Positions 7,663 to 55,080 of a stretch of DNA of 64,000 nucleotides are shown in pieces (position 1 is the stretch's first letter; each line of letters begins with the position of its first letter). The stretch lies in the IMG/VR virus record IMGVR_UViG_3300045988_147321, one strand, 5' to 3'. The notes beneath the pieces were generated by a model, which ran no database searches, was not told the origin of the DNA, and saw only the letters and a program-made list of their open reading frames with translations. The translations under genes were made by a program, and so were the position numbers. The DNA comes from a virus. Lineage: Duplodnaviria > Heunggongvirae > Uroviricota > Caudoviricetes.

Positions 7663-8088
7663 ATGCTCGGCATTCTCAAAAAGAAATTCCGCAAAGCGGC
7701 TGGCGGAGTCAAGAAGATGGAAAACCGTGATGCGGTGGAAGCGACTGTCTGGGGCGCATATTCCATTGCATACTCTGACGGCACCTGCGATGCGAAAGAA
7801 ATTGCAGTATTGGAAAAAACCATTGCAGCACTTCCTGCCTTTGCGCCGTTCTCCGGTGAAATTGCCCAGATGAGCGCCAATATTCGCGCTCAATATGAAG
7901 CCTCGCCGCGCCGAGCGAATGCCCAGGCTTTACGTGAACTGGCTGACGTGTCTGGAACTAATGATGCGGTAGATGTTCTGTGCCTATGCATTGATATTGC
8001 TGACCAGGATGGCATTGGGGCAGAAGAGCAGGAGCAATTGAAGAAAATTGCCCAGGCTCTTCAATTGCCACTGGAACAGTATATCTGA
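7663..8088 (+). CDS. tciA: TerB-like (tellurite-resistance family) protein
   Basis: 141 aa, helical, acidic C-terminus; TerB-like by composition; position matches P1 tciA. Confidence 0.5.
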   Translation: MLGILKKKFRKAAGGVKKMENRDAVEATVWGAYSIAYSDGTCDAKEIAVLEKTIAALPAFAPFSGEIAQMSANIRAQYEASPRRANAQALRELADVSGTNDAVDVLCLCIDIADQDGIGAEEQEQLKKIAQALQLPLEQYI

Positions 8089-8252
8089 TGGTTATAAAAG
8101 CACGTCTAATTCTGGCTTTGGTTTTTCTCGTGCTATCTGTGCTGGTGGATTTCACCAGCACAATCCTGTCGGTTTTATCCGACGGGGCGTTGGTAGCAGT
8201 AGCTGTAACATTGGTATGGCCGATATTTAAACCAGCCTCGAAGGATCAGTGA
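8088..8252 (+). CDS. Small membrane protein (54 aa), start overlaps the tciA stop
   Basis: MVIKARLILALVFLVLSVLVDF... read directly; not in the ORF track (under 60 aa). Coordinates may be off by 1 because the printed sequence and ORF track disagree by one base near 8041. P1 tciB position. Confidence 0.4.
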   Translation: MVIKARLILALVFLVLSVLVDFTSTILSVLSDGALVAVAVTLVWPIFKPASKDQ

Positions 8253-8359
8253 TGAGCTTCTGGGATTTTGCAGATAAGTATCCAATTGTTCTCATTATCA
8301 TTGTTGCCATAGTTGTAGGCGGTATTGTTAGCGCCATTGAAGCACTTAGGAAACAGTAA
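8252..8359 (+). CDS. Small membrane peptide (35 aa), start overlaps the upstream stop
   Basis: MSFWDFADKYPIVLIIIVAIVVGGIVSAIEALRKQ; not in the ORF track. P1 tciC position. Confidence 0.4.
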   Translation: MSFWDFADKYPIVLIIIVAIVVGGIVSAIEALRKQ

Positions 8360-8362
8360 TCC

Positions 8363-8438
8363 GGCCCTTTAGCTCAGTGGTTAGAGCTGGCGACTCATAA
8401 TCGCACGGTCACCGGTTCAAGTCCGGTAGGGGCCACCA
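8363..8438 (+). tRNA. tRNA with CAT anticodon, most similar to E. coli tRNA-Ile2 (ileX, lysidine-modified) rather than tRNA-Met
   Basis: Manual fold: acceptor GGCCCTT/AGGGGCC, anticodon loop CTCATAA, T-arm ACCGGTTCAAGTCCGGT, CCA end; near-identical to ileX as I recall it. Confidence 0.75.
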
Positions 8439-8717
8439 TATTTGGTTGTAACACGGCGTCTGGCACATGCGTCGTTAGCGGTCTGGTGACGTTAAAGGGG
8501 TTACCTTTTCCCCTGGCTCAGGCAACAAACCAGGTAGCCGGAATGTGCAAGTCACCGTTGGAGGGATAGCGGATTCAGGGACTCACCATCCTGGCGATTC
8601 GGTGTGACAGCCGGGAAGAGTCCGGCGCATTAATCCTGATTTTCTGGTGATGACTCATATCGTTAGGAGTGATTTGAGTATGCCGATTATATCTGACATT
8701 CAGCACGCCTGGGTGGA

Positions 8718-32039: not shown

Positions 32040-33233
32040 GTGACCTGGGACGATCACAAGAAGAATTTTGCTCGCCTGGCGCGAGATGGTGGTTACACCA
32101 TCGCACAGTATGCCGCCGAGTTTAATCTTAACCCTAATACTGCACGTCGTTATCTCCGTGCCTTCAAAGAAGACACCAGGACAGCGGACAGCCGCAAGCC
32201 AAATAAGCCAGTCAGGAAGCCACTAAAAAGCATGATCATTGATCACTCTAATGATCAACATGCAGGTGATCACATTGTGGCTGAAATAGCGGAAAAACAA
32301 AGGGTTAATGCCGTTGTCAGTGCCGCAGTCGAGAATGCGAAGCGCCAAAATAAGCGCATAAATGATCGTTCTGATGATCATGACGTGATCACCCGCGCCC
32401 ACCGGACCTTACGTGATCGCCTGGAACGCGACACCCTGGATGATGATGGTGAACGCTTTGAATTCGAAGCTGGCGATTACCTGATAGATAACGTTGAAGC
32501 GCGGAAGGCTGCGCGCGCTATGTTGCGTCGGTCCGGGGCCGATGTTCTGGAAACCACTCTTCTGGAAAAGTCTCTTTCTCATCTCCTTATGCTGGAGAAT
32601 GCCAGGGATACGTGTATTCGTCTGGTGCAGGAAATGCGCGATCAGCAAAAAGACGATGATGAAGGGACTCCGCCTGAATATCGTATCGCGAGCATGCTAA
32701 ACAGCTGTTCCGCGCAGATAAGCAGCCTGATCAACACCATTTACAGCATCCGGAATAACTATCGAAAAGAAAGCCGGGAGGCGGAAAAGCACGCTTTATC
32801 TATGGGGCAAGCTGGCATTGTTAAGCTGGCATACGAACGAAAGCGTGAAAATAACTGGTCAGTGCTGGAAGCAGCTGAATTCATCGAGGCGCATGGCGGA
32901 AAAGTGCCGCCCCTGATGCTGGAGCAAATCAAAGCCGATCTGCGTGCTCCTAAGACCAATACCGATGATGAGGAAAGGCAAACAGCCGTCGGTGGCCCTT
33001 CTCTTGAAGATCTGGACAAAGTTGCGCGAGAACGGGCCGCCAACCGCCGCGCCGATGCCGCATTGTGGATTGAGCAGCGTAGGGAAGAAATCGCCGATAT
33101 CGTTGATACAGGCGGTTATGGAGATGTTGATACTGAAGGTGTATCAAACGACCCATGGCTGGAACAAGACCTGGACGAAGACGAGGAGGAAGACGAAGAA
33201 GTTACCCGCAAGCTATACGGGGATGATGATTAA
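32040..33233 (+). CDS. pacA: Terminase small subunit with the pac site inside its coding sequence
   Basis: 397 aa; N-terminal HTH-like region, acidic C-terminus; size and position match P1 PacA. Confidence 0.75.
32233..32391 (+). promoter_or_regulatory. pac packaging site: 4 + 3 TGATC(A/G) hexamers carrying Dam GATC sites
   Basis: TGATCA at 32233, 32240, 32252, 32267 and TGATCG/TGATCA at 32363, 32375, 32386. Confidence 0.7.
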
Positions 33234-34717
33234 TGGCCAGAAGTTGCGTAACGGATCCACGTTGGCGCGAGCTGGTGGCGCTATATCGTTATGACTGGAT
33301 TGCTGCCGCTGATGTTTTGTTCGGCAAAACACCTACCTGGCAGCAGGATCTGATTATTGAGTCTGTGCAGGAACAGGGCAGCAAGACATCTGTTTCGTCT
33401 GGTCACGGTACCGGGAAATCAGACATGACTTCTATCATGATCATGTTGTTCATAATCATGTATCCCGGTGCCCGCGCCATTATCGTTGCGAACAAAATTC
33501 AGCAGGTAATGACCGGTATATTCAAGTACATCAAGATAAACTGGGCTACTGCCACCAGCCGTTTTCCATGGCTTGCTGATTATTTTGTTCTGACAGAAAC
33601 CGCTTTCTATGAGGTTACTGGTAAAGGTGTATGGACTGTAGTACCGAAGGGCTTTCGTCTGGGAAGTGAAGAAGCTCTCGCCGGTGAACACGCAGATCAT
33701 CTTCTGTATATTATCGATGAAGCCTCCGGTGTCAGTGATAGAGCTTTCGGTATCATCACCGGTGCTCTTACCGGACAGGATAACCGCATCTTATTACTGT
33801 CACAGCCTACACGCCCAAGCGGCTATTTCTACGATACTCACCATAAACTGGCCAAGCGTCCTGGTAACCCTGATGGCGTTTATACGGCGATCACGCTTAA
33901 CAGTGAGGAATCACCGCTGGTAACGCCAGCATTTATCAAAATGAAGCTGGCGGAGTACGGCGGGCGTGATAACCCTATGTACATGATTAAGGTACGCGGA
34001 CTATTCCCTAAATCACAGGATGGCTTCCTTCTTGGACGTGATGAGGTTGAACGTGCGACGCGGCGGAAAGTCAAGATTGCCAAAGGATGGGGCTGGCTTG
34101 CATGTGTGGACGTTGCTGGTGGTACGGGACGGGATAAGTCCGTTATCAATATCATGATGGTGTCCGGCCAGAGAAATAAACGCCGTGTAATCAACTATCG
34201 AATGCTGGAATACACAGACGTTACAGAAACGCAGCTTGCCGCCAAAATTTTCGCAGAATGTAATCCTGAGCGATTCCCAAATATCACCATAGCGATAGAC
34301 GGCGATGGGCTGGGTAAAGCAACGGCGGATCTGATGTACGAGTATTATGGTATTACCGTACAGCGTATACGCTGGGGTAAAAAGATGCATAGCCGTGAAG
34401 ATAAGAGCCTGTACTTTGATAAACGTGCTTATGCCAACGTTCAAGCCGCAGAGGCCGTAAAATCAGGTCGTATGAGACTGGATAAGGGTAATGAAACTAT
34501 TGAGGAAGCGTCGAAAATCCCTGTAGGGATTAACTCCGCCGGTCAATGGAAGGTGATGAGTAAGGAGGATATGAAGAAAAAACTCAACCTGCACTCACCA
34601 GACCATTGGGATACATATTGTTTCGCTATGCTGGCGGATTATGTTCCCCAGGATGAAGTGCTTAGCGTCGAAGAAGAAGCGCAGGTTGATGAAGCTCTGG
34701 CATGGCTTAATGAATAA
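33233..34717 (+). CDS. pacB: Terminase large subunit
   Basis: 494 aa; Walker A GHGTGKS, Walker [11 protein letters not shown]-terminal nuclease-like domain. Confidence 0.8.
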
Positions 34718-48678: not shown

Positions 48679-48700
48679 AACAAGTGACTAGTGTTAAATT
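48679..48700 (+). promoter_or_regulatory. Candidate late promoter upstream of prt
   Basis: AACAAGTGACTAG then 3 nt then TAAATT. Confidence 0.3.
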
Positions 48701-52400: not shown

Positions 52401-52422
52401 AGGATAATGCAAATCACTTGTT
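52401..52422 (-). promoter_or_regulatory. Candidate late promoter upstream of lyz
   Basis: Minus strand reads AACAAGTGATTTG then 3 nt then TATCCT. Confidence 0.3.
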
Positions 52423-52445: not shown

Positions 52446-52462
52446 TATTGCTCTAATTAATT
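52446..52462 (+). promoter_or_regulatory. C1 operator-like 17-mer upstream of ssb
   Basis: ATTGCTCTAATTAATTT, 16/17. Confidence 0.5.
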
Positions 52463-52482
52463 TATTTTATTAGGTAAGAAAA

Positions 52483-52971
52483 GTGGCACAACGCGGTGTA
52501 AACAAAGTCATCCTGATTGGTACCCTGGGGCAAGACCCGGAGATCAGGTATATACCAAATGGCGGCGCAGTCGGAAGACTCAGCATCGCAACGAATGAAT
52601 CATGGCGCGATAAGCAAACGGGCCAACAGAAAGAGCAAACAGAATGGCATAAAGTCGTTTTGTTCGGAAAACTTGCTGAAATTGCGAGTGAGTATTTACG
52701 AAAAGGTTCTCAGGTCTACATCGAAGGGAAACTTAAAACCCGTAAGTGGACTGATGACGCCGGTGTAGAACGTTACACGACGGAAATTATCGTCAGCCAG
52801 GGCGGCACCATGCAAATGATCGGCACTCGCCGCGACGATTCACAGTCCTCAAATGGCTGGGGGCAGTCAAACCAACCTCAAAACCACCAGCAATACAGCG
52901 GTGGCGGCAAACCTCAGAGCAGCGCCAATAACGAACCTCCAATGGACTTTGAAGACGATATTCCGTTTTAG
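52483..52971 (+). CDS. ssb: Single-stranded DNA-binding protein
   Basis: 162 aa; OB-fold core, Gly/Gln-rich tail ending DDIPF. Confidence 0.9.
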
Positions 52972-53053
52972 AGTTTATGAGTAAAAAACGACTGAAAGAA
53001 AAGCGGTGGTCCAAACGCCAACAAAAGCACGAACTCGCTAAAAAACGCCAAAG

Positions 53054-53962
53054 TTGGCAATGGCACGCGTTTTTAACGAACAGAACACCACGAGATATTG
53101 CTTTCGCTGGTGGGAAAACATTCCTAACCCACCTGAAGACGCAATACATCATTTTTTAAGCAGAGAAAAGACTATGACAGCACAAAATACTAAAACCATT
53201 CAATACCGCCTACGTAATGGCCAGAGTGTCGAAGTGACCATCAATAATGATGGAGTACCTGGCGAAAAGGTTTCTATCTCTGATCTGGCTATCGAAAAAA
53301 CCATCATGTGCCACCTTGGCTTTACTGAAGAAGTGAGCAAAAAGCATGGTGTAGCAATCTGGAGCGCAATGGATACTGGTATGCGCAAATTCATTACTGC
53401 TCGTACCCCAGGGATGACCATGATGGACCTCATGCAGATTGCGCCGCTGTTTGAATGTGAGCCTTTAGATGTATTCAGCAATCCAGCTATCTGCCAGCAG
53501 TTATATGGTGAGATGAAACTCGCGGTTACCCCCATTGTGCTGCATGAAGGATCGCTTGCTGGCGTGTGGAAAGTAGAGCGTATTTCAAGCTACATGCCTT
53601 TCCATGTCAACGGCGTAATCACTGGTGAAAATCAACCTGTTTCCGTTATAAAGTCAGACCTCAAGCGCGCAATTCTTGAAGCAAGTTGTCGAGTTGTCGG
53701 CCTGGGCAAACAGTCTTATGTTTCCTTCCCGGCTGGCCCTGAAGGCCCGGCAGAAATTCTGATTATGGATGCCGATCTGCTATGGCAAATACAGTTTCTG
53801 ATTGGCAAAAGCATCATCCGCGCTGAAGAACTCGATCAGTACATTACCTGCACGATGACGGATGAAGTCAAAAGTGTGGCTATAGCCAATGCCCGGAACC
53901 TATGTCGTGCTGCATTAACAGAACTGCAAGAAAACACCACGGAAGAGGTGGAAAGTGATTAA
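53054..53962 (+). CDS. Hypothetical protein coupled to the terminase-like paralog
   Basis: 302-aa ORF (possibly from MTAQNTK at about 53173); its stop overlaps the GTG start of the next gene. Confidence 0.4.
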   Translation: MAMARVFNEQNTTRYCFRWWENIPNPPEDAIHHFLSREKTMTAQNTKTIQYRLRNGQSVEVTINNDGVPGEKVSISDLAIEKTIMCHLGFTEEVSKKHGVAIWSAMDTGMRKFITARTPGMTMMDLMQIAPLFECEPLDVFSNPAICQQLYGEMKLAVTPIVLHEGSLAGVWKVERISSYMPFHVNGVITGENQPVSVIKSDLKRAILEASCRVVGLGKQSYVSFPAGPEGPAEILIMDADLLWQIQFLIGKSIIRAEELDQYITCTMTDEVKSVAIANARNLCRAALTELQENTTEEVESD

Positions 53963-55049
53963 TCGTATACAGAATGAATCTGCCTGGTTAGCACTGATAG
54001 AACGGTATAAAGACAATTGGGAACTGGCAGCAAAAGAGTTGCTTGATATTGAGTTAACACCTCATCAAGCAAAAATTATTAACGCGATAAAGAACACCGG
54101 AGCCAAAATCACTGCCACCACACCACATGGTATTGGGGAAACCTCTATTGTGGCAGTGATTAGCATCCTGCAAACAATACTGTATTCGTGTTCCCGTACA
54201 GTGGTTGTTTCTCCTGCGATTAACGATTGTCGAAAAACAATAATTGACTATATGTTCCGTTATTGGGAGCGAGTTACCCAAAAACACCCTTTTCTTGGCA
54301 ATTATTTCAGAATACACCCTGACAAAGGGTTGGTGCATATCAGTGAAACATGGGGATGCGTCTATATAACCTATTGTCTGAATAACGAAGAGTCTCTGGC
54401 TGGTTTTACTGGACCGCACGATCTTTTCATCGTTATTAACTCGGCGGAAATCAGCGATCGCGCTCATGCAGTGATAACTGGCAATTTAACCAATTATGAC
54501 TCGCGCCTGCTGTTGCTGTCGAAACCATCGGAACGCGAGAAAGGGTACTTTTATGATTCGCATCACCGGTTGGCCCATAGTAAAAACAATCCTGCTGGTT
54601 TTTTCACGGCGATAACTCTAAACACAGAGGATTCACCTCTCGTTTCTGAAGCATATCTTGAATTCAAAGCCAAAGAGTTTGGTGGGCGCAATAGCGATGA
54701 ATATCGCCGATTGATCTTGGGGAAATTCCCCGGGATTCGGGAGTTGATGGAAAAGTCATCTGTTCCCCGTAATATGCACTTCACAATGACTGACGGTAGT
54801 AAATGGGTAGTGCCTACGATCGTGATCGCCAAACACCATGCGAAACATCACGCTCAAAAACACAACTCCAGCACATTAGACTGGCTGAAGGCCTATACAA
54901 TACCGTTATTCTCGGCAAACCATAACGCTATAACTGAATGGGCTAAACAAATCCCCTGGCAGGATGTGGCTGAAGAGGCATTTGTCGAAAAACCACCAAG
55001 AGATATGCACGAGCACTGTTGGCTGACATCAGAAAAGAGTTTCTCGTGA
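53955..55049 (+). CDS. Terminase-large-subunit-like paralog with degenerate ATPase motifs and no nuclease domain
   Basis: 364 aa; aligns with the PacB N-terminal domain, but Walker A reads PHGIGETS (Lys to Glu) and Walker B reads VINSAE (Asp-Glu lost). Confidence 0.6.
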   Translation: MINRIQNESAWLALIERYKDNWELAAKELLDIELTPHQAKIINAIKNTGAKITATTPHGIGETSIVAVISILQTILYSCSRTVVVSPAINDCRKTIIDYMFRYWERVTQKHPFLGNYFRIHPDKGLVHISETWGCVYITYCLNNEESLAGFTGPHDLFIVINSAEISDRAHAVITGNLTNYDSRLLLLSKPSEREKGYFYDSHHRLAHSKNNPAGFFTAITLNTEDSPLVSEAYLEFKAKEFGGRNSDEYRRLILGKFPGIRELMEKSSVPRNMHFTMTDGSKWVVPTIVIAKHHAKHHAQKHNSSTLDWLKAYTIPLFSANHNAITEWAKQIPWQDVAEEAFVEKPPRDMHEHCWLTSEKSFS

Positions 55050-55080
55050 GGTAAAAATCCCGCCAATTGGCGGGATTTCT

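Follow-up and report, generated by a model that had tools for sequence, protein, structure and literature searches.

A selected, noncatalytic relative of the large terminase ATPase domain follows isaA in P1-like and D6-like phage-plasmids

Introduction

Why would a P1-like phage-plasmid carry, far from its packaging genes, a second gene that resembles the large terminase, and what could its product do once the catalytic residues are gone? The question is raised by positions 53,054 to 55,049 of the IMG/VR virus record IMGVR_UViG_3300045988_147321, a 64,000-nucleotide stretch of DNA (here called the window) whose source is a P1-like phage-plasmid (Punavirus). The region holds isaA, a gene known from P1, and a downstream gene for a 364-amino-acid (aa) protein related to the large terminase PacB, which is referred to as the paralog. 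Few phage proteins are as conserved as large terminases, which are also a main trigger of bacterial pattern-recognition immunity. Here, we show that the downstream gene is a selected, noncatalytic descendant of the ATPase domain of a PacB-type large terminase, fused to a domain of about 90 aa.

Results

Homology to PacB and loss of the catalytic motifs

A preliminary description of the locus had aligned the 364-aa protein (53,955 to 55,049, plus strand, GTG start) with the N-terminal ATPase domain of the window's own PacB. The pairwise alignment confirmed this relationship, with 35% identity over 266 residues (BLASTP; E value, 5e-55). The protein also matched the pacB genes of P1, P7, D6, SJ46, and RCS47 (tblastn; E values, 1e-43 to 1e-47), and its ATPase-like part matched the terminase large subunit family phrog_2 (E value, 4e-9). 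The similarity to PacB ends at about residues 262 to 272. A terminase-ATPase-like domain was assigned to residues 1 to 262 (53,955 to 54,740, plus strand) from the identity to PacB, the phrog_2 match, and the matches of an AlphaFold2 model.

Within this domain, the Walker A motif of PacB aligns with TTPHGIGETS in the paralog (54,117 to 54,146, plus strand), with the substitutions G57P and K62E, the latter of which removes the lysine of GK[ST]. The Walker B region reads DLFIVINSAE (54,420 to 54,449, plus strand; IVINSA versus IIDEAS in PacB), where D161I and E162N remove the aspartate and the catalytic glutamate. Both motifs had been described as dead, and both are; the earlier register of Walker B was one residue off, which leaves the conclusion unchanged. 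The description was also right that the nuclease domain is replaced by an unrelated segment, but this segment is about 95 aa long rather than about 120 aa. These last residues showed no match to the nuclease domain of PacB, and the protein has no C-terminal RNase H-like nuclease domain.

The 39 close copies of full length (364 aa), drawn from viral, genomic, and metagenomic collections, all carried the same Walker A sequence, and their Walker B sequences differed only at noncatalytic positions. A frame error masking intact motifs was ruled out because the motifs are identical across dozens of independent copies; no correction of the frame restored them, and 39 of 39 copies were dead. The ratio of nonsynonymous to synonymous substitution rates (dN/dS) against the window copy was 0.2 to 0.3 for the more diverged pairs, and the C-terminal part was the most constrained (0.12 to 0.26). 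The low ratios, together with the same dead motifs in all full-length copies, indicate that the paralog is under purifying selection and is not a decaying copy. The pseudogene reading was ruled out by dN/dS and the intact open reading frames (ORFs), and an active second terminase was ruled out by the lack of catalytic residues and of a nuclease domain. In phage vB_EcoM-813R1, the copy (L003, 4,902 to 5,972), otherwise 99% identical, has a C-terminal frameshift that leaves 356 aa and splits the tblastn match into two pieces; this frameshift could reflect an error in sequencing or a C-terminal domain that is truncated in nature.

With the PacB proteins of P1/P7/D6-type phages, the paralog shares a homologous ATPase domain and the same predicted fold, including the Q motif, the P-loop glycines, and the LAG, S-x-P, FYDSHH, EDSPLV, and YGGR motifs. 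In contrast to PacB, it has lost the Walker A lysine, the Walker B aspartate, the catalytic glutamate, most of the coupling motif, and the RNase H-like nuclease. It further differs from PacB in being optional rather than core, in its place in a probable early operon with a C1 operator, and in having no adjacent pacA-type small-subunit gene. Among the features that define a large terminase (TerL/PacB), the paralog has the additional strand, catalytic glutamate (ASCE) ATPase domain homologous to that of TerL and lacks the Walker A lysine, the Walker B D-E pair, the nuclease, and the neighboring small-subunit gene. Some records label it "terminase large subunit," wrongly, and others "hypothetical protein." A sequence search of the PDB gave no match for the paralog or IsaA, and PADLOC-DB gave no match at an E value of ≤1 for the paralog, IsaA, or IsaB.

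A clade of dead relatives

When 1.84 billion representative proteins were searched with HMMER, 749 relatives were retrieved, most of which were PacB-type terminases of about 500 aa with intact GKS and DE motifs. Degenerate motifs were found in P0002 and P0004, which have a core of about 365 aa and the same C-terminal domain; in P0006, P0007, P0009, P0013, and P0014, which consist of the ATPase domain only (252 to 266 aa); in P0010 (444 aa, with a different C terminus); and in P0041 (268 aa, from a 2.5-kb contig). In a neighbor-joining tree of the ATPase domain, all dead proteins except P0041 formed one clade in 99 of 100 bootstraps, and the subgroup with the C-terminal domain was recovered in 95 of 100. 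Because this monophyletic dead clade falls outside the well-supported P1/D6 PacB clade, the tree points to one old duplication and inactivation and not to a recent copy of the resident pacB, subject to the caveat of long-branch attraction among fast-evolving sequences.

The positions conserved in the live group and lost in the dead group lie in Walker A (S56, G57, H58, T60, K62, and S63), Walker B (D161, E162, S164, and G165), and the region of the coupling motif, or C-motif (Q190, T192, and R194). Another 42 positions are conserved in both groups, including Q38, G59, G61, A149-G150, S189, P191, FY-SHH (199 to 204), E225-S227-P228, and Y242-G243-G244, and residues 196 to 230 form the most coconserved stretch. 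Across the dead clade, the Walker A lysine is lost, with E, R, H, Q, T, M, C, or I at its position depending on the subtype. The D-E pair is also lost, although in some subtypes the glutamate position still holds one acidic residue (VD, MD, or TE). As read from these alignments, catalysis has been lost selectively while the fold and at least one surface are retained.

A more distant dead PacB paralog, of the P0010 type, is encoded at 7,872 to 9,287 of IMG/VR contig 3300013827_000026 (L075). Its 471-aa ORF carries ATGDGTGISH and IIPDATT at the two motifs and a different C-terminal extension of about 180 aa, and it is part of a long run of small accessory genes, all on one strand, after which comes a gene for a LysM-domain protein; the contig encodes its true terminase at another place. 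In addition, a partial copy with 99% identity to the E. coli P1-type paralog is present on a 7-kb contig labeled "MAG: Bacillota bacterium" (L087; JAFAFU010000075.1). The presence of this copy in a Bacillota bin is most likely due to contamination or misbinning.

Predicted structure and the exchanged C-terminal domain

The AlphaFold2 model of the paralog, built from a 17-row alignment, had a mean predicted local distance difference test (pLDDT) score of 86.6 and a predicted template modeling (pTM) score of 0.79; a single-sequence AlphaFold prediction gave a pLDDT of 34. MAFFT misplaced short homologues of the C-terminal domain, and the alignment used retains one misplaced 55-aa row. Fold searches were queried with the whole model. 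Against the PDB, the top Foldseek matches were all terminase ATPase domains, namely, those of Sf6 gp2 (E value, 4e-8), P74-26 (target TM score, 0.66), D6E, and T4 gp17, and the matches included the PhiV-1 terminase from its complex with Avs3. The viral structure library BFVD returned terminases only.

In the model, residues 273 to 346 are predicted to form a beta-hairpin, four helices, and a strand (pLDDT of about 80 to 88), and the final 14 residues, which run to the stop at 55,049, are predicted to be disordered. The C-terminal domain of about 85 aa (54,756 to 55,004, plus strand) was delimited by homology to other proteins, and it matched the end of PHROG 17928 (phrog_17928; E value, 1.6e-13). 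In CP2-like Xanthomonas phages, it corresponds to the last 90 or so residues of a 471-aa protein encoded beside recombinase, exonuclease, and SSB genes, and in the P1-like Cronobacter phage JK004, to a stand-alone 98-aa gene (gene_35) just 3' of a DnaB-type helicase gene. It also matched P0125, a stand-alone metagenomic protein of 123 aa. The common motif is M-DGS-W--P--VIA--HA--YA ... PLF ... DWA ... W-DV. Because these matches are nonterminase proteins, a small mobile domain, typical of early or replication modules, has on sequence grounds taken the place of the nuclease domain. P0125 also has a Cys-rich N-terminal stretch (CKGCGKCAC), possibly a small zinc-binding element.

Pairing with isaA and distribution

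The preliminary description had suggested that the two genes may correspond to isaA and isaB of P1. This held for the upstream gene (53,174 to 53,962, plus strand; 262 aa from ATG; phrog_2326), whose product is 95% identical to P1 IsaA (95 to 100% within the P1 family) and which occupies the same position after ssb. It did not hold for the 364-aa gene, which has no similarity to isaB (best BLASTP E value of 0.053 over 57 aa, with the two proteins in different PHROG families) and occupies the slot where isaB lies in P1. As described, the isaA frame ends at 53,962 and can be read from TTG at 53,054 (302 aa) or from ATG at 53,174 (262 aa). The ATG is the more likely start because 262 aa is the length of IsaA homologues. 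The annotated IsaA of P1 has 320 aa and starts 30 nucleotides (nt) after ssb, and homologues elsewhere have about 248 to 268 aa; the P1 annotation may be too long.

The proposed translational coupling was supported, since the GTG start of the paralog overlaps the isaA stop (GTGATTAA) and GAGGTGG lies just upstream. The start overlaps the isaA stop in every subtype, even though the sequences differ. Three subtypes were distinguished: the window type, a type with 53% identity (TTP[HY]GIGRPQ and IIVDSAH), and a type with 48% identity (TTPTGIGHKS and IVMDAAL). Each of them directly follows an IsaA homologue of comparable divergence, and subtypes down to 48% identity retain the length and both domains. 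Homologues of IsaA, with 24 to 100% identity, are found across P1-like and D6-like phage-plasmids, and those that precede the paralog in D6-like elements are 43 to 49% identical to the window IsaA. The possibility that isaA and the paralog are a disguised pair of small and large terminase genes was examined by comparing IsaA with PacA, and no sequence similarity was found.

In PLSDB, the paralog was present in 120 plasmids versus 336 for isaA. The plasmids with the paralog were nearly all about 90 to 100 kb, nonmobilizable, and from E. coli, Salmonella, or Klebsiella. About a third of the P1-like plasmids carry the paralog, and about 44 D6-like plasmids carry it as well. The 53% and 48% subtypes reside in D6-like plasmids of about 92 kb from E. 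coli and Salmonella; the whole isaA-paralog pair was covered in 34 of 126 matching plasmids for the former and 10 of 232 for the latter, the remainder being partial matches.

The gene row in P1-like and D6-like phage-plasmids is ssb, a leader, an optional Tad2-like gene, isaA, and the paralog as optional 3' cargo. The Tad2-like gene (225 to 228 aa; PF11195; E value, 1e-22) is cleanly inserted between leader and isaA in many of these elements, and the window itself does not have it. In two examples (L179, 2,813 to 3,490, and L166, 7,589 to 8,275), the annotated domain is C-terminal and preceded by an N-terminal part of about 135 aa without annotation. According to a recent survey, 93% of D6 phage-plasmids and 56% of P1 phage-plasmids have Tad2 (bioRxiv 10.1101/2025.09.12.675607). 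The leader of about 200 nt (52,972 to 53,173, plus strand), compared by blastn with L179, L178, L180, and L001, is conserved with or without a following Tad2-like gene, and it holds an ORF for a very basic 60-aa product (52,977 to 53,159).

Gene order and a probable early transcription unit

The order of genes in the window is portal, pro, the lysis genes (minus strand), ssb, the leader, isaA, the paralog, a hairpin, and then hxr and ddrB of the Dar antirestriction operon, which lie on the strand opposite to that of the paralog, so that the paralog and hxr are convergent. The location between ssb and hxr/ddrB, about 19 kb from pacAB (32,040 to 34,717; pacB, 33,233 to 34,717), agrees with that given earlier. 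Over positions 53,054 to 55,049, identity is 99% with phage vB_EcoM-813R1 and 96% with two records that bear the name P1, and reference P1 covers only the first 910 bases, which are isaA. Reference P1 has IS1 and then the 201-aa isaB after isaA, and the paralog takes the place of IS1 and isaB in the window. In P1-like phage-plasmids, the isaA-IS1-isaB locus is called variable region RD-2, or region 2, and has been described as a hot spot of variation (PMC9603915, PMC6906374). In these two papers, the ORFs of the locus are given only unknown or putative functions, and no terminase paralog is named.

Other P1-like plasmids have nothing, a 95-aa ORF, or IS1 and isaB 3' of isaA. The 95-aa ORF (L178, 4,539 to 4,826; L179, 4,526 to 4,813), which replaces the paralog after isaA and has no Pfam match, is a candidate for another cargo gene of this slot. 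Within the paralog, the G+C content falls to 0.42 (54,000 to 54,499) versus 0.48 to 0.53 in the flanking head and Dar genes, which fits statements in the literature that P1's variable regions are AT-rich.

A C1 repressor operator, Ossb (ATTGCTCTAATTAATTT; 52,447 to 52,463, plus strand), has the same sequence as the annotated operator of P1 (NC_005856) and overlaps the promoters of ssb (52,483 to 52,971, plus strand), an ORF annotated as ssb or SSB in P1 and related records. A terminator scan found no plus-strand terminator between ssb, isaA, and the paralog. Between the paralog and hxr lies a GC-rich hairpin, AAATCCCGCC-AATT-GGCGGGATTT (55,055 to 55,078, no strand assigned), a candidate bidirectional terminator that was read from the sequence and was not called by the strict scan. 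The P1-identical operator, the lack of an internal plus-strand terminator, and the hairpin after the paralog stop suggest that ssb is the first gene of an early transcription unit that would be repressed in the lysogen and would end with the paralog.

A sequence at 53,953 to 53,971 (plus strand; AAGTGATTAATCGTATACA) fits the layout of P1 late promoters, with a 9-nt -22 box, 4 nt, and a -10 hexamer, and overlaps the start codon of the paralog. Four sites with this layout were found in the 64 kb versus about 0.2 expected by chance, and two of them match annotated P1 late promoters (the LPpro sequence at 48,682 and the LPlyz sequence at 52,419 on the minus strand). The -10 hexamer of the site at 53,953 ends in A, not T.

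Discussion

The loss of the catalytic residues and of the nuclease domain suggests that the paralog would neither hydrolyze ATP nor translocate or cut DNA, and that it would act by binding. The reading that we favor, as a tentative choice somewhat short of an even chance, is that of a terminase look-alike with a counter-defense role. Made together with IsaA early after C1 derepression, the paralog would occupy a partner of the real terminase before PacB appears. What is retained suggests this reading: the P-loop glycines and the adenine-contacting glutamine persist, as do the fold of a terminase and the segment that follows the coupling motif. The preferred partner would be a host sensor of the terminase ATPase fold, of the Avs1-3 or Upx type, and the paralog would then be a counter-defense factor; the second choice would be the packaging machinery (PacA, PacB, or portal) of its own phage or of a competitor. 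A decoy derived from an immune target, in which an early dead copy binds Avs1-3 or Upx-type sensors, blocks their oligomerization, and shields the later PacB, is unlikely in so specific a form, and its action may require IsaA and the extra C-terminal domain.

Published work on terminase sensing gives this reading a setting. The ATPase domain of TerL alone suffices to trigger EcAvs2 (PMC13601566), and Upx likewise recognizes the terminase ATPase (PMC13601566, PMC11564622). T4 vs.8 and Ksap2 are stand-alone phage proteins resembling the terminase ATPase that activate Avs2, and an antidefense role was raised by the authors as one possibility (PMC13601566, PMC11564622). By their published descriptions, T4 vs.8 and Ksap1/Ksap2, which activate Avs2, resemble the paralog as accessory terminase-ATPase-like proteins without a nuclease domain; however, Walker A and Walker B are reportedly intact in T4 vs.8, whereas the paralog has lost both and has an extra C-terminal domain. 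The context of the gene points to a counter-defense or conflict role at least as strongly as to packaging interference, because of the optional distribution, the C1-controlled early ssb operon, the Tad2-like gene in relatives, and the adjacent Dar operon. The Tad2-like gene, related to the anti-Thoeris sponge Tad2 (DUF2829), occupies the same cassette locus as the paralog but has no sequence or fold relationship with it. Literature searches for dead or paralogous terminases or for terminase decoys returned nothing relevant, and no case of a counter-defense protein evolved from a duplicated core virion-assembly enzyme was found.

Several observations weigh against the counter-defense reading. 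Recognition by EcAvs2 uses ATP held by the Walker motifs of the terminase together with a bridging ATP (PMC13601566), and the paralog, which judging by its motifs probably does not bind ATP-Mg, might escape this recognition. If a look-alike does bind a sensor, the outcome could be activation instead of a block. The gene neighborhood is weak evidence of function: in D6-like elements, the genes upstream of the pair differ (dUTPase and recombinase) and the pair does not adjoin ssb, and the distant L075 paralog is not beside isaA. Cotranscription with ssb is argued from missing terminators, and the scan also misses the known ssb promoters, so that an internal promoter is possible. Finally, Pfam, NCBIfam, and PADLOC gave no matches for the paralog, and IsaA showed no match in Pfam, NCBIfam, or the PDB and no recognizable fold or family.

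The main competitor is a role in packaging, which we consider somewhat unlikely. The dead domain would coassemble with PacB, PacA, or the portal, and would either delay pac cleavage and packaging of its own phage or poison the motor of a coinfecting P1/D6-type relative or satellite. Such an action would be consistent with the fold and the post-C-motif segment being kept while only catalytic positions are lost, with the nearest relatives being PacB-type terminases of the same phage group, and with the pentameric T4 motor, in which ATPase-dead subunits lower DNA engagement, speed, and success (PMC8589836). However, P1 itself and about two thirds of P1-like plasmids lack the paralog, which argues against a part in the core packaging program, and coassembly is not assured at 35% identity to the resident PacB and with a position outside the P1/D6 PacB clade. 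The distance to pacAB and the dissimilarity of IsaA and PacA also count against it, and exclusion by a lysogen does not sit well with an early unit under C1 control. A replication or recombination accessory is less probable still. Here, SSB, the replicative helicase, or DNA intermediates would be the targets to which the C-terminal domain brings the paralog, with IsaA, and the dead RecA-like domain would serve as a scaffold; the position within the ssb operon, the helicase, recombinase, exonuclease, and SSB genes beside relatives of the C-terminal domain in JK004 and the Xanthomonas phages, and the strong constraint on this domain agree with it. Against this idea, the D6-like pair does not adjoin ssb, no DNA-binding or SSB-binding motif was identified in the paralog, and a core role is at odds with the optional distribution and with the dispensability of isaA in P1 by CRISPR interference (PMC10695390).

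The pocket, which has kept the adenine-contacting glutamine and the P-loop glycines and lost the phosphate/Mg ligands, could also be imagined as a ligand sponge that sequesters an adenine-containing immune signal, as Tad2-type sponges do. Throughout the dead clade, Q38, G59, and G61 persist and other residues stand at K62, D161, and E162, and a Tad2-like sponge gene lies in the same cassette row in relatives. This proposal is purely speculative and very improbable: the paralog has no similarity to known sponges, and the residues at the lysine position vary by subtype, a pattern that gives no hint of a new ligand site common to them. Hardly credible, lastly, is a nonfunctional remnant of a pacB duplicate or an active alternative terminase, for which the "terminase large subunit" label in some records and a few truncated copies, such as the 356-aa copy of vB_EcoM-813R1, could be cited. 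A remnant is opposed by the dN/dS of 0.2 to 0.3, the intact ORF in all 39 full-length copies, and the preserved length and domains of the 48% subtypes, and an active terminase is opposed by the missing catalytic residues and nuclease domain across the whole clade.

The paralog is a previously undescribed pseudoenzyme of the terminase family with a swapped C-terminal domain and a conserved partner, and not a new kind of system. It belongs to a conserved clade of terminase-derived pseudoenzymes that is optional, apparently early, and paired with conserved isaA, in a variable locus rich in antidefense genes and in phage-plasmids that are common in clinical E. coli and Salmonella. Records that name it "terminase large subunit" or "hypothetical protein" are corrected by this assignment, and isaA, a gene of P1, gains a testable partner. 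The paralog thereby offers a cloneable candidate for how phages meet terminase sensing or tune or sabotage packaging. If the counter-defense reading is true, it would be a counter-defense protein that evolved from a duplicated core enzyme of virion assembly.

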